Part shown: piece after piece, positions 18,208 to 34,951 of the stretch
Position numbering within the stretch: position 1 is the first letter of the stretch
Layout of the letters: each line of letters starts with the position of its first letter
Source of the DNA: Vicinamibacterales bacterium
Lineage (GTDB): Bacteria; Acidobacteriota; Vicinamibacteria; Vicinamibacterales; UBA8438
Reading direction: 5' to 3'
Length of the DNA: 64,000 nt
Assembly (NCBI GenBank): GCA_965262555.1
Contig: OZ253543.1
Coordinates: 4,129,010-4,193,009 of the forward strand
Program-made: the position numbers and the translations under genes
The notes under the pieces: generated by a model
What the model saw: only the letters and a program-made list of their open reading frames with translations
What the model was told of the DNA's origin: nothing
The model's database searches: none

Positions 18208-18238
18208 GGAGGAGTCCATATAGGAGGGAAGAGTGCAG

Positions 18239-18740: not shown

Positions 18741-18906
18741 TGTCCACCATATACGGAGAGCCGGTACCGTCCTGCGCCGTCCTGAATGGTCCTTAAATGA
18801 CTGAATAATAAGTTATTACTACTCATTCACGGGCTTGACGAGTGCCGCTTTCGTCCAGTACTATCCACCAGTATCCGCCATTCACTGAGGGGTATACTGG
18901 TAGGCC

Positions 18907-20163
18907 ATGGAACTCCCGACACGACCCCGGACCGCCAAGCCGAACGGCCGGCAGCCCCACCACGCGCTCTCGACCGCCTTCGTCCGAAACGTAGCACAGG
19001 CCGGACGCTACTGTGATGGCGATGGCTTGTACCTCGACGTGCAGCCGTCCGGGACGCGCAGCTGGGTACAGCGGCTCGTCATCCGCGGCCGCCGCCGCGA
19101 ACTCGGACTCGGCGGCTTCCCGCTCGTCCCGCTCAAGGACGCCCGCGCCCAGGCCCTCGCCAACCGCAGGCTCGCCCGCGCCGGAGGCGATCCGCTCGCC
19201 GAGAAGCGCCGACTCAAGAGCATGCCCACCTTTGCCGCCGCCGCCGAGGCCGTCCTGGCGCAGATGCGGCCCGGCTGGCGCAATCCCAAGCACGGCAAGG
19301 ACTGGCTGTCGAGCATGGCCCGCTTCGCCTTCCCGCGGCTCGGCAAGCTGCCCGTCTCCGAGGTGACGAGCGCCGACGTGGTCGAGGCGCTGCGGGCCGT
19401 CTGGCACGAGCGGCCGGCGACGGCGCGGCGGGTCCGTCAGCGCATCAGCACCGTCATGGAGTGGGCCGTGGCGCTGAACTACCGCGACGACAACCCGTGC
19501 AGCCGCATTGGACCGGTCCTCGGACCGCAGCAGGATCTCGTCCAGCACATGCGGGCGCTGTCCCATCGCGCCGTGGCGGCGACGGTCGGCGCGGTGCGGT
19601 CGTCCGGTGCGGCTCCCGCGGTCAAGCTGGCGTTCGAGTTCCTCGTGCTGACCGCCGCGAGATCCGGCGAAGTACGTGGAGCACGGTGGGACGAGATCGA
19701 CATGGCGAACCACGTGTGGACCGTCCCGGCCACGCGGACCAAGGCGAAGCGGGAGCACCGTGTCCCGCTGTGCCGCCGCGCCGAACAGATCCTCGACGCG
19801 GCCCAAGCGATCAGCAACGGGAACACGCTCGTGTTCCCGAGCGGACGCGGCAAGCGTCTCAACGACATGGCGTTGTCGGGACTGCTCAAGACGCTGGAGA
19901 TCCCCGCGGTTCCGCACGGGTTCCGCTCCACCTTCCGGGACTGGGCCGCCGAGGAGACGAACCACCCACGCGAGGTGGTCGAGGCGGCGCTGGCCCACGT
20001 CGTCCAGAACAAGGTCGAGGCCGCCTATGCGAGATCGGACCTGTTCGAGCGGCGGAGGCGGCTCATGAACGATTGGGCCGCGTACGTTGCCGACACACAT
20101 CGTCCGCATCCTCCGATCGCGGAACCGGCGGAACACGAGGTCGTCGGAAGCGCAGCACTGTGA
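18907..20163 (+). CDS. int: tyrosine integrase, P4-type, copy 2
   Basis: Paralogue of 15199..16434 (GDGLYLDVQPSGTRSWVQRLVIRGRRRELGLG ... HGFRSTFRDWAAEE ... AYARSDL). Confidence 0.9.
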   Translation: MELPTRPRTAKPNGRQPHHALSTAFVRNVAQAGRYCDGDGLYLDVQPSGTRSWVQRLVIRGRRRELGLGGFPLVPLKDARAQALANRRLARAGGDPLAEKRRLKSMPTFAAAAEAVLAQMRPGWRNPKHGKDWLSSMARFAFPRLGKLPVSEVTSADVVEALRAVWHERPATARRVRQRISTVMEWAVALNYRDDNPCSRIGPVLGPQQDLVQHMRALSHRAVAATVGAVRSSGAAPAVKLAFEFLVLTAARSGEVRGARWDEIDMANHVWTVPATRTKAKREHRVPLCRRAEQILDAAQAISNGNTLVFPSGRGKRLNDMALSGLLKTLEIPAVPHGFRSTFRDWAAEETNHPREVVEAALAHVVQNKVEAAYARSDLFERRRRLMNDWAAYVADTHRPHPPIAEPAEHEVVGSAAL

Positions 20164-20384
20164 CCACGACCTGACCTGCCTTCCCCGGTCGATCACATCG
20201 TCCCCGCGGACCGGTCAGGCGCGAACGATGGGAGCACCGACGTACATCAGGCACGGGACACGGATCGAGCGCGGAACGACATCGAGGGAGCGCGACGGGA
20301 CAAGAGAAGATCCGGGCGGTGAAAGCGAGGCTGTCGGGAGCACGATCAGAGGACACGAAGGGCTGGCCATGACACGCTTGTCTG

Positions 20385-20417
20385 TCATAGCCAGCATACC
20401 CCTTGTGTACACAAGGG
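20385..20417. promoter_or_regulatory. conserved motif TCATAGCCAGCATAC plus an 18-bp perfect palindrome CCCTTGTGTACACAAGGG
   Basis: The palindrome verifies by reverse complement. The same 15-mer plus palindrome recurs inverted at 31448..31480. Confidence 0.6.
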
Positions 20418-20741
20418 CTGGCGAGGGTGAGTTGCCTCCCCCATCGAACCCCCACTGCCGCGCGCCTGAGTTCGGCTCGCGGGAGAGCGGGCGGCGTTGC
20501 CCCGCTCCTTCCTGGCGGTGCACTGACGGCTGATTCGCCGCACCGCGGTTACCGCCCGCCGCGTGTCGTCGGCGACGCTCGCCGGCCGGCCGGCGTTGCC
20601 TGTGCGCGGCCGTGGTCTCGCCGTAGACGTCGCTTCCGGCCGCGGTGGCGCGGTCGTTCCGGTGGCCGGCGCGCCCACCGTCTTGCCGCTGCTATCATTG
20701 CTCCGCACAAAGTTGTCGCCAGCCAGCGACGCCCGCGCCTG

Positions 20742-21092
20742 ATGCTTCCGACGATAGACCAACCCGTGACCGAAGGCGGCCTTACGAAGGCGGCGCTCGT
20801 CGAGGAGGTGGCCCGCGTCGCCGGCCTAACGAAGAAGCGCGCCGAAATCATCGTCGACACCGTGTTCGGCAACATTGCGGAGGCGCTGCACCAAGGCGAG
20901 AGGGTCGAACTCCGCGGCTTCGGCAGTTTCCGTCTCCGGCGCCGCGAGCCGCGCCGCGCCCGCAACCCCAGGACCGGCGACCGAGTGGACGTGCCGCCCA
21001 AGCGCGTCGCCTACTTCAAGCCCGGCAAGGCGCTGAAGGAGTTGATCAACCGGGAGCCGGCACAGGCCGCGCCGCCGCCGTTGTCCGAGTAG
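20742..21092 (+). CDS. HU/IHF-family DNA-bending protein (IHF-beta-like)
   Basis: Only the last 116 aa of ORF 20403..21092 look real: LTKAALVEEVARVAGLTKKRAEIIVDTVFGNIAEAL..GERVELRGFGSFRLRRREPRRARNPRTGDRVDVPPKRVAYFKPGKALK. Confidence 0.8.
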   Translation: MLPTIDQPVTEGGLTKAALVEEVARVAGLTKKRAEIIVDTVFGNIAEALHQGERVELRGFGSFRLRRREPRRARNPRTGDRVDVPPKRVAYFKPGKALKELINREPAQAAPPPLSE

Positions 21093-21317
21093 GTCGGCGT
21101 CGAACCGCAATCCCGTCCGCGGCGGTATGTCCGTCGGACGGTTCCAGCGCACGCCCGTGGATAGCCTCCGCGAGCGGCGTGTCAGGCGTTAGGCGCATTC
21201 CTCCGCTCCGCACCGGCCCTTGGCAGGGTGACACGCTGCTCGCTCCGGCTCCAGGCTGGTTATGGTCGGCCGTATCCGGCCAGCCATCGACCACTGGCCG
21301 GCCGTGAGGTTGACCCG

Positions 21318-21877
21318 TGACAGAGACGCCGGCGCTTGGCGCGACGTAGTACCAGGCGACGACCGCCCGGTAAAGAATGGGCGTGTGGCAGTGCACGAGC
21401 ACGGCCACGGGATCATCGACGGCGAACACTGCCGGCCAGTGCCACCCGCACCACGAGGACATGCCGCCGACGGTCAGCAATAACCCGCCGCCGCGCCGCG
21501 TCATAGCGCGGCTCGTCGGCGTGTCCGCTCGCGCCCGTGGGCGGGCGTCGGATCCTTCCAGCATGGATAATTTCGGACGGAGCGACCCCGCTTGGCGAGG
21601 GGGGACGGGTGGGACACGGCGTGGTACACGACGTGGTACACCCCCCACTCGTCGAGCCGCGCTAGCGGCGAAAAAAGGGGGGTCGCTCCCGTCCTCTCCC
21701 TCTCCGCTGGCGCGGTTCGGCAGCGACGGTCCAGGACGAAAAACCCGAACAAAGACAGCGCAAAAGCGACGGGTGGCGTGTGACACCCCCCACGCTGTTT
21801 TTGGTACACCCCCCCTCCTGTCCGTGTACCATTCTGCTCGACCCCCGCCGTGACCCCCATCGTGACCCCGGAACGGT
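21318..21877 (+). repeat. outer inverted repeat, left copy (about 560 bp)
   Basis: Aligns by eye with the reverse complement of 32004..32565. Roughly nine in ten positions are identical in the stretches I aligned. Confidence 0.8.
21578..21690 (+). repeat. three-way-junction element, long form, copy D (candidate ncRNA)
   Basis: GGAGCGACCCC...GGGGGGTCGCTCC closes a long hairpin (GCTTGGCGAGGGGGG...CCCCCCACTCGTCGAGC) and a short hairpin (CCGC-GCTA-GCGG), followed by an A6 tract. Confidence 0.65.
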
Positions 21878-22222
21878 CCATACGACGGGGCAAAATAGCG
21901 CGGGTCACATTAAGCCGCCTCGGGACTGACCAACCGGATCGTGCTCCATATTGAGTACCGGTCAATCGCGACTCGCCGATGCTCTTTGGTGGGCGCGCCC
22001 TCGGGAAGTTTCTGCAACAACTCAACACGATCCAGCAACACCGGATCCAGGGCGGCAGAACGGACATCGAGAGCAAGACTCGTGCACGGATCCAGGTTGG
22101 GAGGGCGGCGGCCACGGAGATCAACGGGAATCAGAAGGCGGCGAACGTGACGGAGATCAGGTGCGGGATGGGAGTCGAGGTCACGGAGCGGGACCACGAT
22201 GAAGACAGGGAACGGGACGAGG

Positions 22223-22575
22223 GTGTGATCTACCCTGTCGCTCGATCACGACAAGATAGAGGCCCGAACTTACACCAGAGATGCCGGACGGGAGGTGTAA
22301 GCAGACCCAGGGCCTCAACTTACACCCCGAGTCACACTTCAACTTACACCCCCGCACCCAATAAATCCTTTCATATCAACCAGATCCCAACACAACGTAC
22401 CACCCCCACGTACAGAGAATAGGTACAGGGGGGAGGTAGGGGAGCGACCCGGCGAAAACCTGGCGGTTTTCGGACCCGGCAGGCGTTCCTCCGTCACGCC
22501 TGCCGGGCCGGGTCGCTCCCCTCGAAATCGTCCCTCCGGGAAGGGAAGGGCTGCGGCTCGTGTGCGCCGTTGGCT
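22223..22575 (-). repeat. inner inverted repeat, left copy (about 350 bp; boundaries +/-30)
   Basis: Its reverse complement aligns with 30575..30923. The shared order is hairpin, junction element, AT-rich ATATGAAAGGA segment, GGTGTAAG iterons, GTGATC..GATCAC. Confidence 0.8.
22439..22521 (-). repeat. three-way-junction element, short form, copy B (candidate ncRNA)
   Basis: The reverse complement reads GGGGAGCGACCCGG CCCGGCAGGCG-TGACGGAGGAA-CGCCTGCCGGG T CGAAAACC-GCCA-GGTTTTCG CCGGGTCGCTCCCC. Confidence 0.7.
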
Positions 22576-22676
22576 CGCAAGCTGACCCATTCGGGCGGCG
22601 TCACGGTGCTGGCCGGCATGCTTCTTGCTTGCGTTAGTCCGTCAGGAGACCTCTACTCGCGGAGCTTGACCACTCG

Positions 22677-24293
22677 ATGCCAGCACAACTACACTTCTGG
22701 CCTGTGAACGGACCCACCTTCACAGAGACTGCCGCCGATGCACTGTCACCTACAGGTGTCACAGCAGCACATCCGAGACGACCGGTTGAGATCGTCAAGG
22801 GCAAGACTCCTGAACGACTAAGGACGCCCCTTGACGGGCGACGCCGCCGCGACCAGCAGGGGGTACTGTGGCCCGGAACCCAGGTGCTCCGGCCAGCGCT
22901 AGTACCCGTCAACTCCCCGAATTGCGGCGAGACGGCCGCACGCCAAGCCCTGTACGACCGATTCGCCGATCGAGTTGAAGTCGACCCAGAATTCACACGA
23001 CGGGTCGTCTCGTACCAGGGCAATCGCGAGGTCCCCGGACTTCGCTGGATGAAGTACAAGGAGGGCTTTTCGCGCACGCTCGTCAACTACCTCCTCGACG
23101 AGTACCAACCCGAACATGTGCTCGACCCCTTCGCGGGGATCGGCACGACGGTGCTCACAGCTGCCGGACGCGGTGTGGAAGCCACCGGGATCGAGATCAT
23201 GCCGGTCGGCGTCCTGGTCGGCACCGGGATCGCTGCGGCAGCCAACGGCACGTCAAGGACGGTCTTCAACAAGGCCATCAGCGCGATCCGCTCTCGGATC
23301 GCTTCGCAGCGACCAGCTGCCCCTGAACACGCCTTTCCGCACGTGGCGATCACCGCGTCGGCCTTCCCGGTTGAGGCGGAGCGCGACATCGGGAAGGCTC
23401 GTGAGTTCATCGCCGGAATGGAGGATCGTGCAACGCAGAGGCTGATCAACCTCGGCTGCATGTCTGTCCTCGAGGCTGCGAGCTACACCCGCAAGGACGG
23501 TCAGTACCTTCGCTGGGACACTCGCTCGGGCCGCAAGTTGCGAGCGCGGATGGACAAGGGACCGATTCCGTCCTTCTCGGACGCGCTCGAACAGCGTCTC
23601 TCGGAAATGGCGTACGACCTCGACCCTGTCAAGCAGATCTTCGGCGGCGGTCGCCCGAGCTTCCGGGCCGGTTCTTCGCTCGATCTCCTCAAGACGCTGC
23701 CTGACGCCGCTTTCGACATGGTCATCACCTCGCCGCCCTACGCCAACCGATACGACTACACGCGAACCTACGCGCTCGAATTGGCATGGCTGGGTCTCGA
23801 CCGCGACGCGTTCGGCAGGCTTCGACAGGGCCTACTCTCGGCAACGGTCGAAAACCGGAGCAAGGTCGAGTTGCTGCGCGCAGTGTATGGTGACCGGCCG
23901 GAGCCCCTCGAACACGCGCTCGCACTGTACCGGCGCCAAGCAGCCCTACACGAGGTGCTGCACATTCTCCGTGGCCACGTCGACGAGCTCGGCAACCGGC
24001 ACGTCATTCGACTCCTAGAGGGGTATTTCCTGGAAATGGCGGTCATCGTGGCTGAGCTCGGCCGCGTAGTGCGTCCTGGCGGGTCTGTGATCATGGTGAA
24101 CGACAACGTGCAGTATCACGGCGAGGAGGTTCCGGTCGACTTCATCCTGTCGGATTTCGCCGAGCAGTCTGGATTCGCCTGCACGGACATTTGGACTCTC
24201 GCAAGGGGCAAGGGCAACGCGAGCCAGCAAATGGGGCGATTCGGCCGGCGCGAGATCCGCAAGTGCGTCTACCGCTGGGAACGGATCGGATGA
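22677..24293 (+). CDS. N6-adenine/N4-cytosine DNA methyltransferase (motif I before motif IV, alpha-type order)
   Basis: LDPFAGIGTTVLTAA (FxGxG motif) comes about 200 aa before MVITSPPYANRYDY (SPPY motif). The first ~90 aa look like a dubious extension, so the true start may be later. Confidence 0.8.
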   Translation: MPAQLHFWPVNGPTFTETAADALSPTGVTAAHPRRPVEIVKGKTPERLRTPLDGRRRRDQQGVLWPGTQVLRPALVPVNSPNCGETAARQALYDRFADRVEVDPEFTRRVVSYQGNREVPGLRWMKYKEGFSRTLVNYLLDEYQPEHVLDPFAGIGTTVLTAAGRGVEATGIEIMPVGVLVGTGIAAAANGTSRTVFNKAISAIRSRIASQRPAAPEHAFPHVAITASAFPVEAERDIGKAREFIAGMEDRATQRLINLGCMSVLEAASYTRKDGQYLRWDTRSGRKLRARMDKGPIPSFSDALEQRLSEMAYDLDPVKQIFGGGRPSFRAGSSLDLLKTLPDAAFDMVITSPPYANRYDYTRTYALELAWLGLDRDAFGRLRQGLLSATVENRSKVELLRAVYGDRPEPLEHALALYRRQAALHEVLHILRGHVDELGNRHVIRLLEGYFLEMAVIVAELGRVVRPGGSVIMVNDNVQYHGEEVPVDFILSDFAEQSGFACTDIWTLARGKGNASQQMGRFGRREIRKCVYRWERIG

Positions 24294-25198
24294 CGTCCCA
24301 CGACGACCTGACACGCTCCAAACTTCTCGCGGAGCGAATACGACAGCGCACAGATGAGAAGGTCCGGCGGCTCGTCGACAGATTCAAGGGTCACCTCGAC
24401 TACGTGACGGCCAAGGAGTTGCTGATTAGCGAACCGGCGTGGGAGTACGTCACCTCGTCAGGCCTCGAGCCGCGTAGAGTGTTCGCACATCCCGAGCTCC
24501 TTCAGGAGCATCCCGAAGTCTCGTTCTACTATCGGGGAATCGCTCTCTTGTCGCTGAAACGGGTGCGCGCTGCGGCAGGGGTCGATGTCAAGGGATGGGA
24601 GACCAAGGACCGCGTCCGGCCCGTGTCTCAGCAGGACGCGCTTCAGGTCTGTCGCGTCTACAACAGCGTGATTTCCTCGATCATCGAGGGCACGACCGAA
24701 TGGAGCTTGGGAAACGGGTATCGGAACATCCTGAACACCATGGGAATAACCTTGGACGGGATGTTCCGAAACGTCATCGGCCAAGACGCCGAGCGGCTAA
24801 TCAAGACGAAAATCGCCGACTGGTTGGACGAGCAGGGATTGATCCTCGAGCGGAAGAGCGCGAGCAGGTTCCGCCTCCCGGAGGACGTGACGATGGTGTA
24901 CGGGAGCGAACCGGACATCCGCTTCAGCCAGAACGAAGATGTCGTCGCCACGATTGAGATCAAAGGCGGGAAGGACCCCGCCGGCGCGCTCGAACGACTT
25001 GGGGCGATGCAGAAGAGCTTCGCCGAAACACCGCCCCGCTGTCAGAACTTCTTGATCGCAGGGGTGGTCACGACGGAAATGGAGTCGCGACTCGCCCAGC
25101 ACAACGTCAAGGTCTTCATTCTTGACGACCTGCTGAACGACGACGACTGGAACGCGTTCACGACCGAGCTGTTCCACCACGCCCTGAGAATTGCGTAA
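24290..25198 (+). CDS. putative type II restriction endonuclease (PD-(D/E)xK-like)
   Basis: Trimmed to the ATG at 24290, which overlaps the methyltransferase stop as ATGA. The candidate catalytic signature is SEPDIRF...VATIEIKGGKD. No other recognisable domain is present. The assignment rests on context plus this motif. Confidence 0.5.
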   Translation: MTSHDDLTRSKLLAERIRQRTDEKVRRLVDRFKGHLDYVTAKELLISEPAWEYVTSSGLEPRRVFAHPELLQEHPEVSFYYRGIALLSLKRVRAAAGVDVKGWETKDRVRPVSQQDALQVCRVYNSVISSIIEGTTEWSLGNGYRNILNTMGITLDGMFRNVIGQDAERLIKTKIADWLDEQGLILERKSASRFRLPEDVTMVYGSEPDIRFSQNEDVVATIEIKGGKDPAGALERLGAMQKSFAETPPRCQNFLIAGVVTTEMESRLAQHNVKVFILDDLLNDDDWNAFTTELFHHALRIA

Positions 25199-25384
25199 CG
25201 GGACGTCCGCCGTGTGCTTTCGTGTGCCCCCGACATCCCGTTACACAGACGAAGAGAGGGCAGTTCTCCCTGCCTTCCCATGTCACATGCCCAGTGCGAG
25301 GCCCATTAGCAGGCTCGCGGGTGCGCGGTCAGGAGGCCGGGGGAACTGCCTTGGAACTCGTTGGATCTCCAAGTGGGCGCGGAT

Positions 25385-26116
25385 TCAGGGTCTCGGTCCG
25401 ACGATGTGAATCGTCTGGCCGTTACGCATCGTCGTGATGGTTCCCCAGTCTTCCGCAGTCAAGTCAGCCATGACCGCTTTCGCTCGTTCTTCGTCCTTGA
25501 GATGCGCCCAGAACCAGCCGGACGTCGCGAGCATGGAGATCGTGGCCAGGAGCATTGCTGTCCAGAACCAGTCGCCCGGATAGACAGGCCATCCAGCCTC
25601 GTCGACGGGATTGCCCAACACTTGGCCCTTCCCGCCGTGTACGAAGTCGTTGAGTACCGGTGCGAGGTTCGCCCACCGCTGGCTGAGGTCCGGCCACCCG
25701 GTGCGAGCTGCCAAGTCCTTGAGGGTGCGACGGTTCACTCTGATTCTCTGCGCCACGAGCTTCTGCCACCCATCATCGTCGCCCACGTAGGCGGTGAGCA
25801 GCACCTGCTTCATCAGCGCCTCCAGTGTCGGACGGGCGAGCGCGAAACCGGAGGCGTATCGGTTGGAGTGAAAGGCGTAAGCCATGGTCACTGCATGATT
25901 CACAATGATCGCGGTGTACGAACCCGCGTACTTCTCGCGCGCTGACACGCTCTGCCCGCGGGTCAGGAGACCATGTGGAGCATGCCGTGCAAGCCTGTTG
26001 TAGCGGTCCAGGACGGCCTGCTTCACGATGTGGAACTCCTTATGATCCGTCGGCCGGTCCGCTGTATTGATCTCGTACATGTGCAGATGGTCGCGCTTGG
26101 GCGGGCCGTGGGGCAA
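25385..26116 (-). CDS. hypothetical helical protein, possibly DUF5677/AbiV-like
   Basis: 243-aa ORF in lower-GC cargo DNA with its own upstream region after a terminator. The weak resemblance (ALARPTLEALMKQVLLTAYV ... LNDFVHGG) to AbiV-type proteins is from memory only. Confidence 0.5.
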   Translation of the reverse strand: MPHGPPKRDHLHMYEINTADRPTDHKEFHIVKQAVLDRYNRLARHAPHGLLTRGQSVSAREKYAGSYTAIIVNHAVTMAYAFHSNRYASGFALARPTLEALMKQVLLTAYVGDDDGWQKLVAQRIRVNRRTLKDLAARTGWPDLSQRWANLAPVLNDFVHGGKGQVLGNPVDEAGWPVYPGDWFWTAMLLATISMLATSGWFWAHLKDEERAKAVMADLTAEDWGTITTMRNGQTIHIVGPRP

Positions 26117-26300
26117 CGTTCATCTCAGGGACGGCCAGACGGTGCGCGTGCCCGTACGTGCATCATAGCTCTTGCCACGAGCAGGTTCCAAGCGCGGGCA
26201 CCACCGGGAGGTCAGTGCTTCGGTCGGGAGTCTCGGTGCGTCCGACGTCGCTGCGTTTGGTTCGCGGCAGTCCGTTACGGAACGAGGGGTACGGCGGGGG

Positions 26301-26336
26301 GAACAAACAACTAACGTCGGCACAAAACGTTAGTTG
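26301..26336 (-). terminator. intrinsic terminator after the 1391-aa gene
   Basis: On the minus strand: CAACTAACGT-tttgtgcc-ACGTTAGTTG followed by TTTGTTC, starting 9 nt after the stop codon. Confidence 0.65.
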
Positions 26337-26344
26337 TCAATAAG

Positions 26345-29300
26345 TTAGTGGATTGTTGCATCGGAAGCCCTGGAAACACCGCCATCTCGACTCGCGATCA
26401 ACAGGCACTCGTTGATTGACGTGTGCGTTGACAGATTCGGATCTCGCGGGTCATGGCTGCACACGATCATGTCGATGTGGAACCGTGACGCGAGGAACTG
26501 TCGCTCGCGGAGCCCCGACGACCCCGTACAAGCGGTCACCGGTATGATCTTCGCCAGAACGCCGCTATCCTGGGCCAGGACCTTCTCGGCGAGCGGTGTG
26601 AACATCGTGCTGATGCTGTTCGAGTCGATGACGCCCGCCGCTTCCGCGTCGCTGGCCGCCAGCCGGTCGCGGATCTGAAGCTCCCGCCTTTGCAGGGCCT
26701 TGGTGACTTCCGGGGTGAACTTCCGCCCTTTCTTGTCGTTCGCGGTGAACGGCGGATTCATCATCACGATCCGCCGGTCCTCGACATCCTGGACGACTTC
26801 GGGGTCCACGGCCGACGACTCGAACAGAGCGCCCTGTCCCTGCTTGTCGCCTTCGGCGGCGTTCGCCGCCGCCGACCCCACCACGTCCTCATCGGTCAGC
26901 AACTCCAGCGTCCCGAGCCTCACGGTCTCGCCGTTGACGGAGCCGTACGGCATCGCCCGCAGAGCCATCTTCCGGTAGTCGATCAAAAGGTTGCCCAGCG
27001 TCATGCGCCCCGCCGCCATCTGCAAGGACACGGGATTGATGTCCAGACCCGTCACGAGCCGCTCGACGGCGTACTTGTGGAATTCGGCCGCGGTCCGTTC
27101 GTCGCCGCCGGCCTTGCGGATCCGATCCTTGACCACCTCCAAGTAGGCGTTCAACAGCGTGCCGCTCCCGCAGGCCAGATCGGCTATCTTGAGCCGCTTC
27201 CACGTTCGCCGCTCCTTCCACGCGGTTTCGCCGGTCGCATCGAGCGCCAGCTCGGCCAGCAGCCGCGCCGCCGGCTGCCGCGTGAAGAACGCACCGTCGG
27301 ACGCCTGGTTGCCCAGGACCCGGCTGAATAGCTCGCCGGCGTACTCCATGCCCATCGACACGTAGAGCTCGGCGTTCTCGCTCGCCCAGGCGGCGACCGC
27401 TCGCACGGCCTGATTGACACCACCGTGCGCGTCCGCTGCCGCCAGCGCCTCCAGAACATCTAGCGCCGGCCGGAACACCGGCTCGTAGTCGTACCGCAGG
27501 ACGGCCATCCACGCCGCCCGCAGCACCTTGACGGGTTCGCTTCCGGTCGCCACGTCGTGAAGCCGGCCGACACGGGCCAGATCCGCCGCCTGCCCCTTCG
27601 CGTCCTCCAGCCGCGCGTGCAGGAGCGCGGCGTTCATGAGGAGCAACACGCTGACCGTGCACGCATCGGCGTGGGCGTCCGCCTCCTGTAAGTGCTCCAT
27701 GCCGAGCACCGAACGCAGCCGGCCCTCCAGCCCTTCGCGGCTCAAGTGCGCGGATGCGCGACGCACCGGCTCCATCAACAGGTTAAAGTCTCGGACCTCG
27801 TTCCCGCGCAGCCCGGACTTCTCCATCACCTCGACGCGCAGATCGCGTCCTACGCCGTCCTTCCGGATCTGCTCCAGGAGCCGCTGCGTTGGCGACTGTC
27901 CGGCCCGACGCCCCTCCTTGGAACCATCGCGCCGGGAGGCGCGCCGTCGGGGCCGTCGCGGCAACGGGTCGAGTGCCTCGGCCACCTCGCGCGCCCGCTC
28001 CACGGTCTTCGCCACGTCCACGCCGCCCTGACGCTCCGCGGACCGCGCCGCCGCCTGCACGGTGCAACGGACGCCGCCGCGACCGCGCTGGACCACCAGC
28101 ACAGCCGGCGACCCATCCAGCATCTTTTCGTCGTCCGCAGCCGACCTGTCGGTGAAGCGCTCAGGCTCGCCGCGGATCGCCGGAGCCTGCCGCCACTCAA
28201 AGCCCTTGGCCTCCGTCAGGTACTCGGTGACAGGAGCCGCGCCCGCGGTCGAAGCCTCACGCCACGCCGGCACTTCCGCCTGCGCCACGGCGTCTTCAGC
28301 GTGGCCCCGAGGTCCCGTCCACACGCCCATGCGCGTCTCGCCGCCGTCGCGGACCACCAGCGGCTGGCAAACCGGTTCTTCAGCCTCCGGCGGCACATAG
28401 ATCTGCAACAGGCTCGATATCTCGTCCTCGATACGTCCATCGTGCGCCCGCAGCGCCCGCAACACCTCACCGAGCATCTTCCACTCGTCGCCGAGTGTGT
28501 CCATCGACAGACTCGTCTCCGCGTCGATGCCCCGCGGCAGCGGCACCGGCACGATGACGTACCCGTGTTCTTTCCCCGGTGCTCGGCGCATGCAGCGGCC
28601 GACGATCTGGATCACGTCGGTCGGGCTGCGGCGCGGGGCCAACAGCGCCACCGCATCGAGACTGGGACTGTCCGTCCCCTCCCCGAAGATCCCGACGTTG
28701 GCGATCCCGCGCGGATTCTCGCCATCCGCCGCTGCGAGATCGCGCAGCGCCCGTCGCCGTTCGCGCACCGGATGTCCCGCGTCGAGATGCTCAACGGCAT
28801 ACTGCCGACCAGCGCCATCGAAGCCGCCCTCGGCGAAGTACTGCTCGATCTCCAAGCGCCCCTCGTCGCTGTTGAGCCACTTCGCCATCTGGTCCGACCG
28901 CTGGACCTTGTTCAGGAACGCCAGGGACCGGCTCACCCGCACGCTGCCGTCGTCTCCGACCGCGCCTCCGGCAAGCGTCACGCCGTAGACCAGCCAGGAG
29001 AGCGCCTCGCGGGTCGTCAGCCCGCGCGACTCCTGCGACTGCTCGAATCGCTGGACGATGCGATTGGCCGCCGTCCACGCTCGCTCATTAACGCCGATCG
29101 CGATGATCCGATAGTCGGACAGAAAGCGCTTCTCGACCGCCTCCTTGTACGGGAGCCGGTAGGCCACCGGGCCGAAGATCGACTGGTCCGACATGCTCGC
29201 CACGATCCACTTCGTGCGGTCAATACGGGCGACCTTCACGTTGCTCGCATCGAAGACGCGGGGCGTCGCCGTCTGGTACAGCCGGTACCGGGCCGGAAAC

Positions 29301-30520
29301 GCCTCCTGGTCGTGACACAGCGTGAACACACGCATCCGCTCCGCTCGCCGCTGACTCTTCACCGGCCGCAACTGAGCCGTCCGGTGCGCCTCGTCCAGAA
29401 TTAGGACCTGCGCGAACTGGCGCTCCGCCAGCAGCGCGTCCGCCGTGTGATGCGCCGACTGGTATGTCGAGAAGATGATGTGCAGGTCGGTCGAGTCCAC
29501 GCCAGCGCGAAGCCAGTCGGCGACCGCCTCGGCGCTCTGGGACACCCGGCAACCGACATCGGCCGCGCGGACCTGTCCGGCGTCCCGTGTCGGATCCGCC
29601 GCGAGATCCGGATCCCGCTCGACATCGACATGTCCCGCCGTCGCGTCGCTGCACACCGCCAGCGTCCGCACCGGGCGACCGATGTGCGACAGGTACTCGC
29701 GCCGCACCTGCGCGATCAATGCGATGCTCGGCACGAGCACCACGCCAAGGTCGCCGGGTCCCGACAACTCCGACATGATCCGCATCGACACGCGGGTCTT
29801 GCCGGTCCCGCACGGCAGCACGAGCGTCGCCCGGGCTGGGTCACGCGGCATCCAATCCGCCGGGTTGCGGCCGAGCCAGCGGTCCCGATGCTCGGCCAAC
29901 CCGGCGCGAAGCGCCTGCACGCACGCGGCCACGGCCTCTTGCTGCATAGCCGTACGCGGGTCGGGTTCAGTCGACGCCCGTTCCCGTTCCCTCGCATCCG
30001 CCAGCGCTTCGGCCAGCGCCGCCTCGAAGTCGATGAACGTCACCTCGGCGACGGCGGCGGCATCCTCCGTCGCCGCGCTCCGGCGGGCCTCGGCTACCAT
30101 CCAGCGCTCAGCGAACACCGACGACGGAGCAGCCCCGGCGAACTGCTGCACCTGCTTCGTCGTCACGGCCCCGTCGCCGCTCCGCGCCTTGCACTGGATC
30201 GCCACACGGGAACCGTCATGCTTGACGGCCACGAGGTCGATGCCGGCGTCGTGCGACGGCAGGGGAACGCCTACCGTCGTCCGCTCCGGCCACTCCAGAT
30301 AGGGCCAGCACTCGGCGATCTCCCAACTCGGAACATCCCGCGCATGCCGCAGCACCGCGTCCTCGAACTGCGTCCCGTCGAACCGGCGCGCGTCCCTGTC
30401 GGCTTGCAGGGACACGAGCGTCTCGTTGAAACTCGAAACCTGATCCGTCATGATCGTGCGGAAGTGTACATCGCGAGGGCCGTCAGTCGGAATGGAACCG
30501 TCAACCGTTACGGTCGCCAC
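26345..30520 (-). CDS. single-polypeptide Mrr-like nuclease / SF2 helicase-type ATPase / N6-adenine methyltransferase (Type ISP-like R-M fusion)
   Basis: - N-terminal nuclease motif: HDAGIDLVAVKHDGSRVAIQCK.
- Walker A: LPCGTGKTRV.
- DEAH box: LILDEAHRT.
- Helicase-C: GIFGEGTDSPSLDAVALLAPRRSPTDVIQIVGRCMRR.
- Methyltransferase motif I: IADLACGSGTLL.
- Methyltransferase motif IV: MMNPPFT.
- Only about 140 aa follow NPPF.
- An alternative ATG start lies at 30451. Confidence 0.8.
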   Translation of the reverse strand: MATVTVDGSIPTDGPRDVHFRTIMTDQVSSFNETLVSLQADRDARRFDGTQFEDAVLRHARDVPSWEIAECWPYLEWPERTTVGVPLPSHDAGIDLVAVKHDGSRVAIQCKARSGDGAVTTKQVQQFAGAAPSSVFAERWMVAEARRSAATEDAAAVAEVTFIDFEAALAEALADARERERASTEPDPRTAMQQEAVAACVQALRAGLAEHRDRWLGRNPADWMPRDPARATLVLPCGTGKTRVSMRIMSELSGPGDLGVVLVPSIALIAQVRREYLSHIGRPVRTLAVCSDATAGHVDVERDPDLAADPTRDAGQVRAADVGCRVSQSAEAVADWLRAGVDSTDLHIIFSTYQSAHHTADALLAERQFAQVLILDEAHRTAQLRPVKSQRRAERMRVFTLCHDQEAFPARYRLYQTATPRVFDASNVKVARIDRTKWIVASMSDQSIFGPVAYRLPYKEAVEKRFLSDYRIIAIGVNERAWTAANRIVQRFEQSQESRGLTTREALSWLVYGVTLAGGAVGDDGSVRVSRSLAFLNKVQRSDQMAKWLNSDEGRLEIEQYFAEGGFDGAGRQYAVEHLDAGHPVRERRRALRDLAAADGENPRGIANVGIFGEGTDSPSLDAVALLAPRRSPTDVIQIVGRCMRRAPGKEHGYVIVPVPLPRGIDAETSLSMDTLGDEWKMLGEVLRALRAHDGRIEDEISSLLQIYVPPEAEEPVCQPLVVRDGGETRMGVWTGPRGHAEDAVAQAEVPAWREASTAGAAPVTEYLTEAKGFEWRQAPAIRGEPERFTDRSAADDEKMLDGSPAVLVVQRGRGGVRCTVQAAARSAERQGGVDVAKTVERAREVAEALDPLPRRPRRRASRRDGSKEGRRAGQSPTQRLLEQIRKDGVGRDLRVEVMEKSGLRGNEVRDFNLLMEPVRRASAHLSREGLEGRLRSVLGMEHLQEADAHADACTVSVLLLMNAALLHARLEDAKGQAADLARVGRLHDVATGSEPVKVLRAAWMAVLRYDYEPVFRPALDVLEALAAADAHGGVNQAVRAVAAWASENAELYVSMGMEYAGELFSRVLGNQASDGAFFTRQPAARLLAELALDATGETAWKERRTWKRLKIADLACGSGTLLNAYLEVVKDRIRKAGGDERTAAEFHKYAVERLVTGLDINPVSLQMAAGRMTLGNLLIDYRKMALRAMPYGSVNGETVRLGTLELLTDEDVVGSAAANAAEGDKQGQGALFESSAVDPEVVQDVEDRRIVMMNPPFTANDKKGRKFTPEVTKALQRRELQIRDRLAASDAEAAGVIDSNSISTMFTPLAEKVLAQDSGVLAKIIPVTACTGSSGLRERQFLASRFHIDMIVCSHDPRDPNLSTHTSINECLLIASRDGGVSRASDATIH

Positions 30521-30574
30521 ACCTGTCGTTGCATCGGGACCGGTTCATCACCGAACTGGCGCGCGACGACTCGG

Positions 30575-30923
30575 CGGCGAGCGCCGGCCGCGACCGTGGC
30601 AACCCTTCCCGGAGGGACATCTTCGATGGGGAGCGACCGGCCCGGCAGGTGTGACGGAGGAACGCCTGCCGGGTCCGCAAAACGCCAGTTTTGCGGCGGG
30701 TCGCTCCCATACCTCACCCCTGTACCTTTTCTGTACGTGGGGGGCGGTATGTGGTGTTGGGATCGAGTTGATATGAAAGGACTTATTCGGTACAGGGGTG
30801 TAAGTGAAACTGTGACTGGGGGTGTAAGTTGAGGCTCCGAGGCTGCTTACACCTCCCGTCCGGCACGATGCGTGTAATCTCTGCCCCTGTCCCGGTGTGA
30901 TCAGGCGACCGGGTGGATCACAC
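30575..30923 (+). repeat. inner inverted repeat, right copy
   Basis: See 22223..22575. Confidence 0.8.
30628..30708 (+). repeat. three-way-junction element, short form, copy C (candidate ncRNA)
   Basis: GGGGAGCGACC GG CCCGGCAGGTG-TGACGGAGGAA-CGCCTGCCGGG T CCGCAAAAC-GCCA-GTTTTGCGG C GGGTCGCTCCC. Confidence 0.7.
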
Positions 30924-31447
30924 TTCCACTCGCGTGGCCTCTGCTCCCTCGGTCCGCCGATCCGTGCCGCCTTCCGTCTCCACCGTGCCGATCCCGTCGC
31001 TGTGGATCGGGACGTGCTTCCCGGCGATCTGCTGCACCTCTGCTCCTGCCGCCGTGTCCCGTCCGCTGTGGCCGGCGTGCGGCTCGACCGGGCGGGTTCG
31101 AGCCCGGAGCCGGTAGCGGCCGATGCGGTCTCGGGCTCCGGCTCGCCGCGACAACGGCGCGTGTTCGTCGTCAGCGAGGGCCAGCCTTCCGGCTGGCCCG
31201 TAAGAGCGTTTCCGCACGGTCGGCCGCGGCGGTCACCCGCAGGGCCGAAGCGCACGCGGAGGAGGCGCGGCAGCGCCTTGACGGCCGCGGGCGACCGTGC
31301 GCTCCCGGACGCCGGGGACCGCCCGGCGCTCATCATCCTGCCGAGCGAGCGGGCCGGCGACGGCCGCATCGATGGCGGGTCTGAAGCGGCGCGGCGACGC
31401 GCCGTCTCTCCGTCCGGGGGACGAGGGGGCGGAGCCACCCGCCAGTC

Positions 31448-31480
31448 TCCTTGTGTACACAAGGAGTATGCTGGCTATGA
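31448..31480. promoter_or_regulatory. 18-bp perfect palindrome TCCTTGTGTACACAAGGA plus GTATGCTGGCTATGA (inverted copy of the 20385 motif)
   Basis: Direct comparison with 20385..20417. Confidence 0.6.
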
Positions 31481-31494
31481 TGCCTAACAGGTGT

Positions 31495-31835
31495 CAGAGT
31501 CAGTTCTGTGAACGTGAAGTTTTCTCCCCTCGTCAGCCGCTGTTCGTCGGGTTGGTGGGCGAGCGCGTAGACGAAGCAGTCGCCGTCGTTGAGTCCGGGC
31601 GTGGCCCTTTCCCGTAGTCGGCAAACGCCCGTCACCCGATCTTGTCCTGAGCGAAATCGACCGCCACGACCTCAATGAGGACCGACTCGATCAACAGGTC
31701 GAGCGACCGAACACCGTCGGCCCCGTGACGCGACTTGAGGACCATCGACCACGCCCAGCGGCGGGACGCTGCAACGAGGAAATGGCGCGACTGAGACAAG
31801 CCATCCTGAGCAACGATGAGCGCTGTTTGCGACAT
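31495..31835 (-). pseudogene. decayed PIN-domain vapC
   Basis: Three frames carry successive pieces: MSQTALIVAQDGLSQSRHF...VLIEVVAVDFAQDKIG*, then RAFADYGKGPRP, then GLNDGDCFVYALAHQPDEQRLTRGENFTFTEL. At least two frameshifts are needed to join them, and the normal stop is lost. Confidence 0.6.
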
Positions 31836-32003
31836 ACGGGGGGACGTCAGTCAGGCGGACGCGCGCTACTCGGCACTCCGAAGACTGCCAGCCGGGACCG
31901 TGGACCGTGGCGGCTCGAATGGCCACTTTGTGACCTGGACGACGGGCCGGCTCGTTGGACCAGAGGCGGGCGCGTGATGCGCCGCGCTCGCGGCCGGAAA
32001 CGC

Positions 32004-32565
32004 ACCGCTCCGGGGTCGAGGCGGGGGTCACGGCGGGGGTCGAGCGGAATGGTACACGGACAGAGGGGGGGGTGTACCAAAAACAGAGTGGGGGGTGTAA
32101 CACACCGGCCTTCCAATTTCCGCCGTCGCTATTGGGTTTTTTCGTTATAAGCCGTCTGCCCCGAACCGCGCCAGCGGAGAGGGAGAGGACGGGAGCGACC
32201 CCCCTTTTTTCGCCGCTGGCGCGGCTCGACGAGTGGGGGGTGTAACACGTCGTGTACCACGCCGTGTCCCACCCGTCCCCCCTCGCTAAGCGGGGTCGCT
32301 CCCGTCCGAAATCATCCTTGCTGGAAGGCTCAGACGCCCGCCAACGGGCGCGAGCGGACACGCCGACGAGAGGCGTGATGACGCGGCGCGTCGTCGGGTT
32401 TTTGCTGACCGTCGGCGGCATGTCCTGGTGGTGCGAGTGGCACCGGCCGGGACTGTTCCCCGTCGATGATCCCGTGGCCGTGCTCGTGCACTGCCACATG
32501 CCCAATCTCTACCGGGCGGTCGTCGCCTGCTGCTGCGTCGCGCCAAGCGTCGGCGTCCTTATCGC
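32004..32565 (-). repeat. outer inverted repeat, right copy
   Basis: See 21318..21877. Confidence 0.8.
32191..32303 (-). repeat. three-way-junction element, long form, copy E
   Basis: The reverse complement matches copy D. The short hairpin loop is GCCA instead of GCTA, and one G-to-A change creates an A-C mismatch in the long stem. Confidence 0.6.
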
Positions 32566-32650
32566 GGGGCAGATGATGATTGCCGCCTCGCGCATCTGAT
32601 TCGCCAGAAGGGGCGGCAGACTGTCGCTCCCGGCGCCGACCGCGTTCGCC

Positions 32651-33910
32651 TCACGATGACGCGCCCGCCCGCGCGGTATCGGCAAGATGAAAAGCGACCA
32701 CCCGCCCGCGCGCCCCGGCAAGGTACGCCTCCCAGTCGTTCATCAGACGCCGCCGCCGCTCGAACAGGTCCGACCGCGCGTAGGCCGCCTCGACCTTGTT
32801 CTGGACAACGTGCGCGAGCGCCGCCTCGATAACCTCGCGCGGATGGTCGGTCTCCTCGGCCGCCCAGTCCCGGAACGACGAACGGAAGCCATGTGGAACG
32901 CAGGCGATGCCGCAGCGTTCGAGCAGCCGGCGAAACTGCTTGGTATCCAGCGGTATGCCGCCCCTGTCGGTGAACACCAACGGACCCGCGTCGCCGATCA
33001 TCCGCGCCTCGCACAGGATCTCGGTGGCCCTGCCGCACAGCGGCACCCGGTGGTCGCGCTTCATCTTCATCCGCGCCGCCGGAAGGGTCCACACGTGGTC
33101 CGTCGTGTCCATCTCGTCCCACGTGGCCCCGCGCACCTCGCCCGAACGTGCGGCCGTGAGCACCAGTAGCTCGCACGCCAGCTTGTCGACGGGTTTCTCC
33201 CCCGACGCCCGCACTGTCGCCACCGCAGCGGCGACCTCGCGGTGCGGCAGCGCCCGCATGTGCTCGACGATGTTGCGCTGCGGGCCAAGCACCGGCCGGA
33301 CCCGGTCGGCGGGGTTGTCGCTGCGCAGGTTCATCGCAATGGCCCACTCCAGCACGGCATGGAGGCGCTGCCGAACGGCCTTGGCGATGACCGGCTTGGC
33401 GTACCAGATGGGGGAGAGGATCGCCAGCACGTCGGCGCTCGTGACCTCCGAGACGGGCCGGGCGCCGATGCGCGGGAAGGCGTAGCGTTGAAGGCTGTTC
33501 CGCCACGCCCGGATCTGTTCGGCGTTCTTCCAGCCGCCCTGCTTCTGCTCGATCACGGCGGCGGCGGCCTCGGCGAAGGTGGGTATGCTCTGAAGGCGGC
33601 GCTTGTCGGCGAGCGGATCGCCGCCTTCGCGGGCGAGCTTGCGGTTGGCGACGGCCTTCTCGCGGGCCTCGGCGAGCGAGACGAGGGCGACGCTGCCGAG
33701 TCCGAGTTCGCAGCGCCGGCCGCGGATGACGAGGCGCTGGATCCAGCTTCTCGCGCCGGTCGGCTGGACGTAGAGGTAGAGTCCGTTGCCGTCGATGTGG
33801 TGTCCCGGCGGCGCACTGCGGACGAAGGCAGGGGCGAGGGCGTTGTGGGGATGGCGTCCCCGGCGCTTGGTTCTGCGGGGTGAGGGGGCGGCATCCGTCT
33901 CTGTATACAT
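32651..33910 (-). CDS. int: tyrosine integrase, P4-type, copy 3
   Basis: 419 aa, a full-length paralogue (GNGLYLYVQPTGARSWIQRLVIRGRRCELGLG ... HGFRSSFRDWAAEE ... AYARSDL). Confidence 0.9.
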   Translation of the reverse strand: MYTETDAAPSPRRTKRRGRHPHNALAPAFVRSAPPGHHIDGNGLYLYVQPTGARSWIQRLVIRGRRCELGLGSVALVSLAEAREKAVANRKLAREGGDPLADKRRLQSIPTFAEAAAAVIEQKQGGWKNAEQIRAWRNSLQRYAFPRIGARPVSEVTSADVLAILSPIWYAKPVIAKAVRQRLHAVLEWAIAMNLRSDNPADRVRPVLGPQRNIVEHMRALPHREVAAAVATVRASGEKPVDKLACELLVLTAARSGEVRGATWDEMDTTDHVWTLPAARMKMKRDHRVPLCGRATEILCEARMIGDAGPLVFTDRGGIPLDTKQFRRLLERCGIACVPHGFRSSFRDWAAEETDHPREVIEAALAHVVQNKVEAAYARSDLFERRRRLMNDWEAYLAGARGRVVAFHLADTARAGASS

Positions 33911-34035: not shown

Positions 34036-34822
34036 TCAGTGGACCGAGCATGGGCGGTGCCCATGCGGCACGGCGGCGATGCCGAGTTCCTTGGTCAATT
34101 TCGATAGCGTCGTGTTGGAGAGTGGCTTCCCGCGCGGACTGCGGAACACGAGGCCGGTGCCATCGCTCCGTCTCGGTACGTCGTGCAGGATCGCGAGCGC
34201 CCGCCCCGAGAGCGGGACGCGGTGATCCCGCTTCGCCTTCATGCGCGCGGCGGGGATGGCCCAGACGCCCGCGTCCAGGTCCATTTCGTCCCACGTCGCC
34301 AGGCGCACTTCGCCGGATCGCGCCGCCGTCAGCACCAGAAACTCGAACGCCCGCTTAATGGTGACCGCGGCCTGGGAGGTTCGCACGGTCGCGAGAGCGT
34401 CCGCCACCGCGTCGTGGGGTAGCGCCTGCAAGTGCTGGACACGACGGCCTGCTGTCGCCCGCCGTGTTGTCCGGCGGGTAGCCCATCGCGACCACCCATT
34501 TCATCACGGCGCCGATCCGTTGCCGTACCCGCCGCGCGGTCTCAGGCTTGTCGTGCCAGATCGGAGTTAAGGACCGCCGGCAGGCCGTGGTCACCCCGGA
34601 CAGGCACCACCCCGATGCGCGGGAACGCATAGGCGCGCAGACTGCGCGGCCAGGCTTGCCCGTACCTCGCACCACGCTGAAGAACCCAGCAGTGTTCCGA
34701 TTCGACACGACAAGATTCGTTCGTCGCTTGGGGCCGAGCGAGATCGAGCGGAGTCCTGTTCTTGTTCTGGCGCCATGATATGGGGGACCATGTGGGGGAC
34801 CATTCCCTCCTATCATAAACAT
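34036..34822 (-). pseudogene. decayed P4-type integrase adjacent to tRNA-Ser
   Basis: Pieces lie in at least three frames (WPRSLRAYAFPRIG; IWHDKPETARRVRQRIGAVMKWVVAMG; MQALPHDAV...LTAARSGEVRLATWDEMD...VPHGHRPCSVH*). About 70 N-terminal residues are missing. The C-terminal catalytic His/Tyr region is also missing, and the truncation point abuts the upstream region of integrase 3. Confidence 0.8.
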
Positions 34823-34857: not shown

Positions 34858-34951
34858 TGGCGGTGAGGCAGGGATTCGAACCCTGGGAGGAGGTTAAAGC
34901 CCCCTCAACGGTTTAGCAAACCGCCGCCTTCAGCCTCTCGGCCACCTCACC
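34858..34951 (-). tRNA. tRNA-Ser (anticodon GCU), CCA encoded
   Basis: Hand fold of the reverse complement:
- Acceptor stem GGTGAGG/CCTCACC with discriminator G.
- 3-bp D stem GCC/GGC with loop GAGAGGCTGAA.
- Anticodon stem GCGGT/ACCGT with loop TTGCTAA.
- Long variable arm.
- T arm CAGGG-TTCGAAT-CCCTG. Confidence 0.9.

Follow-up and report, generated by a model that had tools for sequence, protein, structure and literature searches.

Islands that combine a P4-type integrase with defence genes are known from tRNA genes (CP4-57 and the P4 satellites). The same architecture recurs in a 64,000-nucleotide stretch of DNA, here called the window, from a Vicinamibacterales bacterium (assembly GCA_965262555.1, contig OZ253543.1, positions 4,129,010 to 4,193,009 of the forward strand), in which nested inverted repeats surround about 8 kb of restriction genes. 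We consider it highly probable that two related integrase-driven islands, elements A and B, lie there in opposite orientation, one within the restriction gene of the other, and that the nested repeats are their shared backbone. Like the P4-type islands, these elements have a three-domain integrase (arm-binding, SAM-like and catalytic) at one end, an identical short core at both ends, IHF-type sites in the arms and a cargo rich in restriction-modification genes, and the oldest layer, an integrase remnant named intC, lies beside a tRNA-Ser gene. They differ from the islands at tRNA genes in that A-type elements sit in methylase genes and B in an integrase gene, and only the intC remnant abuts tRNA-Ser; in that several to 15 loci were fetched per genome; and in that a conserved motif is present. 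The P4-like primase, alpA and capsid-hijacking genes are absent from A and B.

Other systems resemble the locus in part. Streptococcal integrative and mobilizable elements (IMEs) insert into genes of integrative and conjugative elements. Relaxase-less 'iOriT' hitcher islands with defence cargo have also been described (bioRxiv 10.64898/2026.01.13.699239). Both share with the present elements a small integrase-plus-cargo design, nesting in other mobile elements and a relaxase in some sisters, and the defence genes of the hitchers likewise adjoin a conserved non-coding module; the differences are the host phylum and a motif unlike the region next to the relaxases of sister elements, and a role as origin of transfer (oriT) is here only a candidate one. 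Invertible segments and shufflons (hsdS, Hin/Gin, Rci) also have inverted repeats around restriction-modification genes and a tyrosine recombinase nearby. The repeats described here, however, are long diverged modules rather than short crossover sites in alternative coding ends, the integrases have arm-binding domains and att sites of their own, and a single orientation is seen in two assemblies. Insertion sequences (IS) of the IS110/IS1111 group use a bridge or seek RNA as a guide to hairpin targets, among them repetitive extragenic palindromic (REP) and attC-like sequences. The window holds such an element (16771-18222), with both transposase domains and seated in a conserved hairpin loop, but it is a regional passenger outside the repeats in question. 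An integron was considered and rejected: the integrases are P4-type with an arm-binding domain, and the motif occurs mostly once per element and is missing on the far side of the cargo.

Relatives of intA, the integrase of element A, were collected by a scan of one genome per species, and the counts per genome cover the fetched loci (numbered with the prefix L). The scan gave 76 loci, nearly all in long-read metagenome-assembled genomes (MAGs) of Vicinamibacterales (Acidobacteriota), and the several to 15 relatives per Vicinamibacterales genome commonly show 85-91% amino acid identity. A tRNA gene adjoining the integrase was found in 0 of the 42 loci scanned. When window positions 18000-22700 were compared with the loci, homology began ~175 bp upstream of the integrase, at TGGCTGTAGCCCTGTCCACCATA, spanned the integrase, was broken by variable modules of 1-4 kb and resumed at the equivalent of 22028-22545. 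Most loci have a single copy of this inner block per element, 77-85% identical and followed by unrelated sequence, and the homology stops sharply at window base 22544/5 in every locus.

The ends of the elements could be fixed because family members split their target genes colinearly. Split targets were found by gene clustering of the loci, as methylase halves on either side of an integrase-bearing block. The halves of opposite-strand methylase genes lie 9886 bp apart in L004 and 8565 bp apart in L007, and a same-strand type IIG gene is split by 8721 bp in L010, where the joined flanks restore ..EDPRAMAVA/LEARRLVALRDRWLNP.. (here and below, a slash within a sequence marks a junction or the limits of a core). 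Joining the flanks restored the target in the sister elements L004, L007 and L010 (A type), L057 (B type) and L054 (a 415-aa type). The family attL reads ggctgt/AGCCCTG/TCCACCATA, followed by ~60 bp, CTGAATAATAAG and then the integrase. The family attR consists of GGAACGAGGGGAAC-like repeats, an IHF-consensus-like site WATCARNNNNTTR, ~26 bp and cgga/AGCCCTG/gaag; at least 17 loci share this right end, 4.8-11 kb downstream of the integrase. A-type elements use a ~17-bp site in methylase genes of other elements as target, B-type elements the His-Gly codons of sibling integrases, and the cores differ: AGCCCTG for intA versus C(A/T)(C/T)GG inside integrase genes for the integrase of B (intB).

Insertion of family members into one another is common. 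Integrase genes are split by siblings at about codons 34, 100 and 340, the last at the HGFRS motif (L039, L041, L049, L050, L053, L054, L057, L058 and L067); arrays reach six integrase genes or fragments per 20 kb, and 33 of the 137 integrase open reading frames in the loci are shorter than 300 aa. A decayed type IIG tail (LEARRLVELRDRWLNP..) follows many A-type right ends whose left flanks are varied (L015, L016, L017, L021, L024, L025, L027, L029 and L062), which suggests that one site was re-used repeatedly, with frequent att recombination between copies. Repeated insertion into each other's integrase and restriction genes amounts to a conflict between mobile elements that also inactivates defence systems. 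Members of this backbone family abound in a major soil phylum. Now that the ends, target sites and modular make-up of the family are defined, such islands are easy to delimit in Vicinamibacterales genomes. Literature searching found no description of this element family and gave nothing to contradict the earlier note on this DNA, which knew of no described family with such a backbone.

Each element spans 5-11 kb, with a P4-type tyrosine integrase at the left, a mosaic backbone, a variable cargo of mostly restriction-modification genes and a right arm. The backbone combines repeat blocks, small genes of unknown function and a structured motif of 116 nt, and optionally an IHF/HU gene. The integrase would recombine the short core of the circular form with the core that matches it in the target, an excision and integration chemistry that we infer, in which IHF would presumably have a helper role. 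On this reading the region from 15.1 to 34.85 kb is a pile-up of integrative elements of this one Vicinamibacterales family.

Element A is complete. It occupies 18736-26372 on the + strand (7.64 kb), has the 7-bp core AGCCCTG at each end, and carries in order intA, a palindrome motif, the IHF/HU gene, an outer block, the inner block with the structured motif, a methyltransferase, an endonuclease and an unknown gene:

18736-18742, + strand: attL core AGCCCTG of A; homology among independent insertions begins here, and the identical 7 bp recur at attR
18907-20163, + strand: intA, integrase of A (Pfam Arm-DNA-bind_3, Phage_int_M and Phage_integrase)
20385-20417, unstranded: left copy of the 33-bp palindrome motif, upstream of the IHF/HU gene (self-BLAST, repeat finder)
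20766-21092, + strand: IHF/HU-like DNA-bending protein gene, in A only (Pfam Bac_DNA_binding, E = 1e-30)
21311-21877, unstranded: left copy of the outer repeat, non-coding or decayed, with GGTACACC repeats and a structured-motif variant at 21548-21695
22028-22545, + strand: left copy of the inner block; A/B homology begins at 22223; four CTTACACC or GGTGTAAG repeats, an A+T-richer stretch and the structured motif
22677-24293, + strand: type II DNA methyltransferase, A cargo (PADLOC MTase_II, E = 3e-108); start possibly 23049
24191-25198, + strand: XcyI-like type II restriction endonuclease, A cargo (Pfam RE_XcyI, E = 6e-15); start probably 24290
25385-26116, - strand: unknown gene between the endonuclease and the right arm; its only match is a weak one (PADLOC PDC-S52, E = 9e-4)
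26270-26372, + strand: right arm of A with the attR core AGCCCTG at 26366-26372

The right end of A, ..GGAACGAGGGGTAC..GTTGTCAATAAGTTAG..GCATCGGA/AGCCCTG/GAAAC, matches L004, L007, L010 and at least 14 other loci, and in the window attR stands in the context ..GTTGTCAATAAGTTAGTGGATTGTTGCATCGGA/AGCCCTG/GAAACACC... On the near-identical contig L157 (see below) the methylase is called as 414 aa, with a start equivalent to 23049, and the endonuclease as 302 aa, with a start equivalent to 24290 that overlaps the methylase stop. The HGFRS..Y region is intact in intA, in intB and in a third integrase of the window, int0. From these ends, the attP of A is predicted to read ..GTTGCATCGGA-AGCCCTG-TCCACCATATAC.. 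and the site repaired after excision of A ..TCCGCTGT-AGCCCTG-GAAACACC..; ggctgtAGCCCTGgaagc is a candidate attB for intA, and ggctgtAGCCCTGgaag its presumed target. No direct repeat of the left end of A, CCCTGTCCACCAT, was found downstream, and the 7-bp core was located instead through the split target genes.

Element B lies on the - strand and runs leftwards from 34066; its right end is missing in the window. On the minus strand intB comes first, then the outer block, the palindrome motif, the inner block with its structured motif and a large gene, and the same order is found in L007 and L039. From right to left, B and its surroundings comprise the following:

34858-34951, - strand: tRNA-Ser(GCT), right chromosomal anchor and the only tRNA gene (ARAGORN, Rfam)
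34067-34822, - strand: intC remnant, a further, broken integrase gene beside tRNA-Ser, frameshifted and without its C-terminus (Pfam fragments)
34061-34066, - strand: left junction of B (attL core region, GCATGG), which falls within intC on the His-Gly codons of its HGFRS motif
32651-33910, - strand: intB, integrase of B (Pfam Arm-DNA-bind_3, Phage_int_M and Phage_integrase); exact protein on two other contigs
32004-32571, - strand: right copy of the outer repeat, with a structured-motif variant at 32186-32334 (self-BLAST, covariance model)
31449-31480, unstranded: right copy of the palindrome motif (self-BLAST, repeat finder)
30603-30923, - strand: right copy of the inner repeat, 84% identical to 22223-22545
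26373-30520, - strand: Mrr-helicase-methylase gene (C9), B cargo, type ISP/IIG-like (Pfam and PADLOC), truncated by the attR of A

The left junction of B reads ..GTGCCGCATGG/GCACCGCC... In the window intC ends at ..PHG, no orphan C-terminal piece of it was found anywhere in the window, and synteny with L077, a locus fetched through the gene next to tRNA-Ser, resumes at 34822. The islands are missing at this tRNA gene in relatives: of the 80 loci fetched in this way, 0 have an integrase within ~9 kb after tRNA-Ser, with a fragment at the very end of the 10-kb flank in L114. Relatives of intB (81-87% amino acid identity) lie directly downstream of a broken same-strand integrase gene in L054, L057, L058 and L067. 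In L057 a 6.8-kb element, bordered on each side by CACGG, separates the two pieces of an integrase (aa 97-333 and aa 337-394), and L054 shows an analogous colinear split of an integrase gene by the 415-aa type. We conclude that B entered the integrase gene (intC) of an older element at tRNA-Ser. Its flanks on other contigs also bear on its mobility. The exact intB protein occurs on two further contigs, L157 and L158. In L158, from a third sample, the B backbone is 99.9% identical to the window from 34070 inward but has an unrelated left flank, the start of an amidohydrolase gene (..TTGCTGCATGG/GCACC..), indicating that B moved recently. The L158 contig runs out within the cargo gene without reaching any second arm, and its outer block is interrupted at 4849-7175 by a 2.3-kb IS-like insertion with inverted ends GGATTATATCGAATAGTGCC and GGCACTATTCGATATAAGCCCC and a 10-bp target duplication, CTGTTTTTGG.

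The two elements meet in the cargo gene of B. The C9 gene has 1391 codons; its frame crosses the att core (..GGVSRAS) and stops at 26345, a few codons into the right arm of A. The gene is truncated, since free-standing homologous methylases of 726-734 aa extend ~300 aa past the cut. In L047/L058, one locus of another genome, an 86%-identical gene is interrupted at this very codon by another, different A-type right end, and the cut codon is therefore a recurrent target. The 8 kb between the repeats thus consist of the type II system of A and one gene (22.6-26.3 kb), followed by the truncated restriction gene of B (26.4-30.5 kb).

The inverted repeats were delimited by self-BLAST of the window. 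The outer pair (21311-21877 versus 32571-32004) aligns over 568 bp at 88.2% identity (E = 0), the inner pair (22223-22545 versus 30923-30603) over 326 bp at 84.0% identity (E = 3e-90), and the short motif (20385-20416 versus 31480-31449, also returned by the repeat finder) over 32 bp at 96.9% identity (E = 3e-7). The short motif includes the palindrome CCTTGTGTACACAAGG, of which the left copy is perfect over 18 bp. It is probably an operator or promoter of the IHF/HU module; promoter and terminator scans gave nothing decisive. The stretch around the palindrome motif and the HU gene match other loci, and in L024 they are adjacent in reverse orientation. In the outer repeat, substitutions number 14, 8 and 8 at the three coordinate phases, with purifying selection in no frame, and no Pfam match was found. 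Outside the window this block is scarce: nucleotide comparison with the related loci returned it in L010 alone, at 72%. The four CTTACACC or GGTGTAAG repeats in the left copy of the inner block are spaced 24-25 bp apart, and the GGTGTAAG and GGTACACC repeats are over-represented, with 8 copies observed versus 0.5-0.8 expected. Two other short inverted matches occur in the window, 48264-48296 versus 59383-59415 (33 bp, 97%) and 8245-8309 versus 38941-39005 (65 bp, 82%).

Much of what the earlier note had read from the letters agrees with these results: its three layers of inverted homology, which now have fixed limits and identities; its two full-length, inward-facing P4-type integrases, whose Pfam domains agree; its IHF-like gene; and its iterons, which stand strongly above chance. 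Other parts need revision. Four integrase genes exist rather than two, int0 (15199-16434) and the broken intC (34036-34822) being added; the IS110-family element at about 16771-18222 had likewise gone unnoticed; a supposed vapC remnant found no Pfam support and had as its only basis a C-terminal motif judged by eye; and the true boundary between the elements is the att core at 26366-26372, not a point of convergence of the two arms at 25.2-25.4 kb.

The nested inverted repeats arise because A and B face in opposite directions and share backbone modules. They are a by-product of common descent and module exchange, not an inversion device, and what looks like an invertible switch is an ordinary outcome of two sister mobile elements lying head-outward. 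The flanks of A in the window are, on the left, the remnant of a type IIG gene (C2) that is cargo of the int0 element and, on the right, the B cargo gene (C9). As these flanks are not colinear, a later event must have joined an array beside a PQQ-dehydrogenase gene to the array at tRNA-Ser. In such an event the right end of A would have been joined to the B cargo gene at a sequence that A-type elements use elsewhere, and both the int0 element and B would have lost their right ends. Recombination between the attR of A and an att-like site in the B cargo gene is the simplest and most likely cause, since the junction lies exactly at the att core and the site is used elsewhere; it could have produced either a deletion or a large inversion that extends past the limits of the window.

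Several points weigh against this account of two islands. The non-colinear flanks of A mean that a single simple insertion is insufficient as a full account, and the joining event that we infer was not seen. Without a right end, the full extent of B cannot be shown in the window. The circular attP junction and an empty site were not recovered: the attP junction 19-mer CGGAAGCCCTGTCCACCAT had 0 matches in the loci (in a 17-mer form), and its 19 matches in metagenome contigs were all unrelated chance matches. No simple empty site could be reconstructed from the 80 tRNA-Ser loci (L077-L156), which lack the left flank of the window. The 88% identity of the outer block between A and B, together with its rarity elsewhere, hints at exchange between copies inside the genome, and some recombination between the arms has probably happened. 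The orientation, finally, is based on two assemblies, the window and L157, and the L157 stretch ends before the left arm.

The outer block also bears on the other reading in the earlier note, that of an invertible segment, in which recombination between the outer or inner repeats flips the 8-kb cargo and swaps the pairing of backbone and restriction genes, a switch that would be regulated or frequent. In its favour, the inverted repeats are long, at 326-568 bp and 84-88% identity, and the outer blocks of A and B share 88% identity where the integrase genes share 74%, suggesting past exchange. Homologous recombination is disfavoured at 12-16% divergence, however, and neither an invertase gene nor a short conserved crossover site was found; the recombinases present are all integrases of the arm type, each with its own att sites. 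Dozens of elements with unrelated flanks have a single copy of these repeats as part of their backbone, and inversion would part the integrase-side end of each element from its own cargo and right arm. L157, a 49-kb contig from a different ENA sample (ena:ERZ25068833:ctg55430) of which a 21-kb stretch was fetched, is colinear with window positions 43876-22652 at 99.5%, through the right arm, both cargos and the A/B junction, and has the same orientation. Exact-protein look-ups of intA, int0, the endonuclease, IHF (two start variants) and the 414-aa methylase found nothing of the left arm belonging to L157. The earlier note held that arms always in one orientation with unrelated flanks would speak against inversion, and the comparison went largely that way: L157 agrees, whereas in L158 no second arm is visible. 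We therefore regard a regulated or frequent switch as quite improbable; inversion by homologous recombination between the arms might occur as a rare event. Of the two readings in that note, the one of two tail-to-tail integrative defence islands is the one supported, with their ends now defined and one island placed inside the cargo gene of the other.

The two inverted elements might instead be the arms of a unit resembling a composite transposon, in which all the DNA between both integrases would move together. Inward-facing integrases do bracket the cargo, and nested arrays are common in the family. The cores of intA and intB differ, though, and both outer junctions are left ends, so that there is no matching pair of sites, while A has its own right end within the block. 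The B backbone in L158 has a different left flank, showing that the left junction is not conserved, and A and B have so far been found only separately. Such a unit is very unlikely. Finally, a false join at the A/B junction (26372) from collapsed repeated element ends can be all but dismissed, for although element ends are multi-copy in these genomes, the junction is no assembly artefact because the independent contig L157 crosses it colinearly at 99.5%, and an equivalent junction is present in another genome (L047/L058).

Both islands carry the structured motif at the border between backbone and cargo. It forms the last 116 nt of the inner block and marks this border in most family members. 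Its fold has four helices: a 12-bp closing stem (GGGGAGCGACCC and GGGTCGCTCCCC) encloses two hairpins and is followed by a small terminal one. With a covariance model based on 39 copies, a search of 1.52 Mb of window and loci gave 66 strong matches, three of them in the window:

22435-22550, + strand: U3, structured motif of A, the best match to the covariance model (132 bits)
30598-30713, - strand: U4, structured motif of B (covariance-model match, 114 bits)
18210-18324, - strand: U1, third copy, remnant of a decayed element (covariance-model match, 79 bits), with its other half at 16762-16770

Weak matches fell on the motif variants of the outer block. Covariation was strong: in an alignment that was itself fitted to the model, paired cells made up 93% versus 82% in a shuffled control, compensatory change was seen in 26/36 pairs versus 14/36, and the covariation score was 0.239 versus 0.071, a value reached in 0 of 500 shuffles. 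With the pairing partners slid out of register, ~50% were paired. On the integrase-sense strand A.C mismatches outnumber G.T ones (47 versus 14), and these counts favour a motif that folds as the opposite strand, antisense to the integrase.

The motif belongs to the integrase elements. A generic genome repeat was rejected as an explanation, with 84 copies in 1.46 Mb of integrase loci versus 8 in 1.40 Mb of control loci, a tenfold enrichment. The genome collection has the 17-nt loop of the motif at more than 116 places, mostly in Vicinamibacterales MAGs; 93 of these have the full motif, and in 61 of the 93 stretches, each of at most 8 kb, an integrase is also present. A 27-nt seed pattern of the motif with three N positions had no match in genome contigs. 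Most elements hold the motif once, it is absent on the far side of the cargo, and the gene next to it may lie on either strand. In Rfam searches, only tRNA reached the gathering score in the window, and nothing credible appeared at E <= 5 in 18100-22700. A covarying motif at the border of backbone and cargo, with no Rfam match and with an IS110-family element in the terminal hairpin of one copy, is noteworthy in itself.

Our best guess is that the motif acts as single-stranded DNA, as an origin of transfer or a single-strand origin; a promoter may be another role in that form, and a transcription insulator or a small RNA are candidate alternatives. The relaxase-bearing sisters bear on this guess. 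A relaxase (MobA/VirD2) is encoded in the sister elements L011, L015, L017, L043, L065 and L074, with a NikA/MobC-like gene beside it in L015, L017 and L065, and is absent from A, B and most sister elements. The motif is absent from all six, and no sequence similarity was found between these six and the motif or the A and B backbones, leaving the idea of a transfer origin without direct support. A broader proposal, which we put forward tentatively and think rather doubtful, is that the motif represents a new class of structured nucleic acid acting as single-stranded DNA, and that the integrases have diversified so as to home into genes of rival elements, within the coding sequence. The mismatch counts that favour the antisense strand and the lack of the motif in sisters with their own relaxase fit the first part of this proposal. 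If so, the motif would let relaxase-less, defence-carrying islands hitch rides in Acidobacteriota, and insertion into the catalytic codons of sibling integrases or the methylase part of restriction genes would disarm or immobilise competitors.

To the left of element A the window retains parts of further insertions:

13031-15064, + strand: PQQ-dependent dehydrogenase gene (C1), left chromosomal anchor (Pfam PQQ, E = 1e-188)
15199-16434, + strand: int0, full-length P4-type integrase; the body of this third element is largely replaced (Pfam, self-BLAST)
16771-18222, + strand: IS110-family IS, transposase at 16801-17886 (Pfam DEDD_Tnp_IS110 and Transposase_20)
18632-18735, + strand: type IIG / DrmMI-like restriction-methylase remnant (C2), 100 bp, left flank of A, ..RYTPSTTFETFPFPPGLTP..DPR (PADLOC typing)

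The nucleotide identity of int0 to intA and intB is 74-75% by self-BLAST. Its nearest relatives (82-87% amino acid identity) are in L042, L051, L026 and L023, and in L042, L026 and L023 they lie downstream of a same-strand C1. Elements of the int0 type lie directly after the 3' end of C1, and a C1 gene on the + strand followed by an int0-type integrase is found in L021, L023, L025, L026 and L042. The left junction of A occurs with a full-length C2 gene in L001, L010 and L042. L042 runs from the PQQ-dehydrogenase through an int0-type integrase, two small genes and a type IIG gene to an intA-type element; the window keeps this order, but most of the type IIG gene is lost, and the IS110-family element and U1 occupy its place. 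The IS110-family element is inserted in the terminal-hairpin loop of U1, with the flanks CCTTCCC/IS/GGAGGGA (16762-16770 and 18223-18236) and the subterminal inverted repeats ATGGACTCCTCC and GGAGGAGTCCAT. The block 16521-16770 is a 91% match to post-motif sequence in L041, L046 and L054.

Some minor observations concern the same neighbourhood. The non-coding right end of the IS110-family element holds CCTTCCAGGATGGA (18176-18189), which is similar to the target hairpin, and from its appearance this might be a guide (bridge or seek) RNA region. Paralogues of the PQQ-dependent dehydrogenase recur beside integrases in L008, L019, L031, L032, L037, L038 and L045, and in another sublineage, with 76-78% identity to intA, the PQQ gene is on the opposite strand with its 5' end against the left end of the element. 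Three successive tyrosine recombinase genes of the recombinase-in-trio type lie near integrase elements in L027 (1-3100) and L066 (11900-15300). L056 (OZ245367.1), a 70-kb record titled plasmid, holds an N-terminally truncated intA relative with IS110-family and DDE transposase genes nearby.

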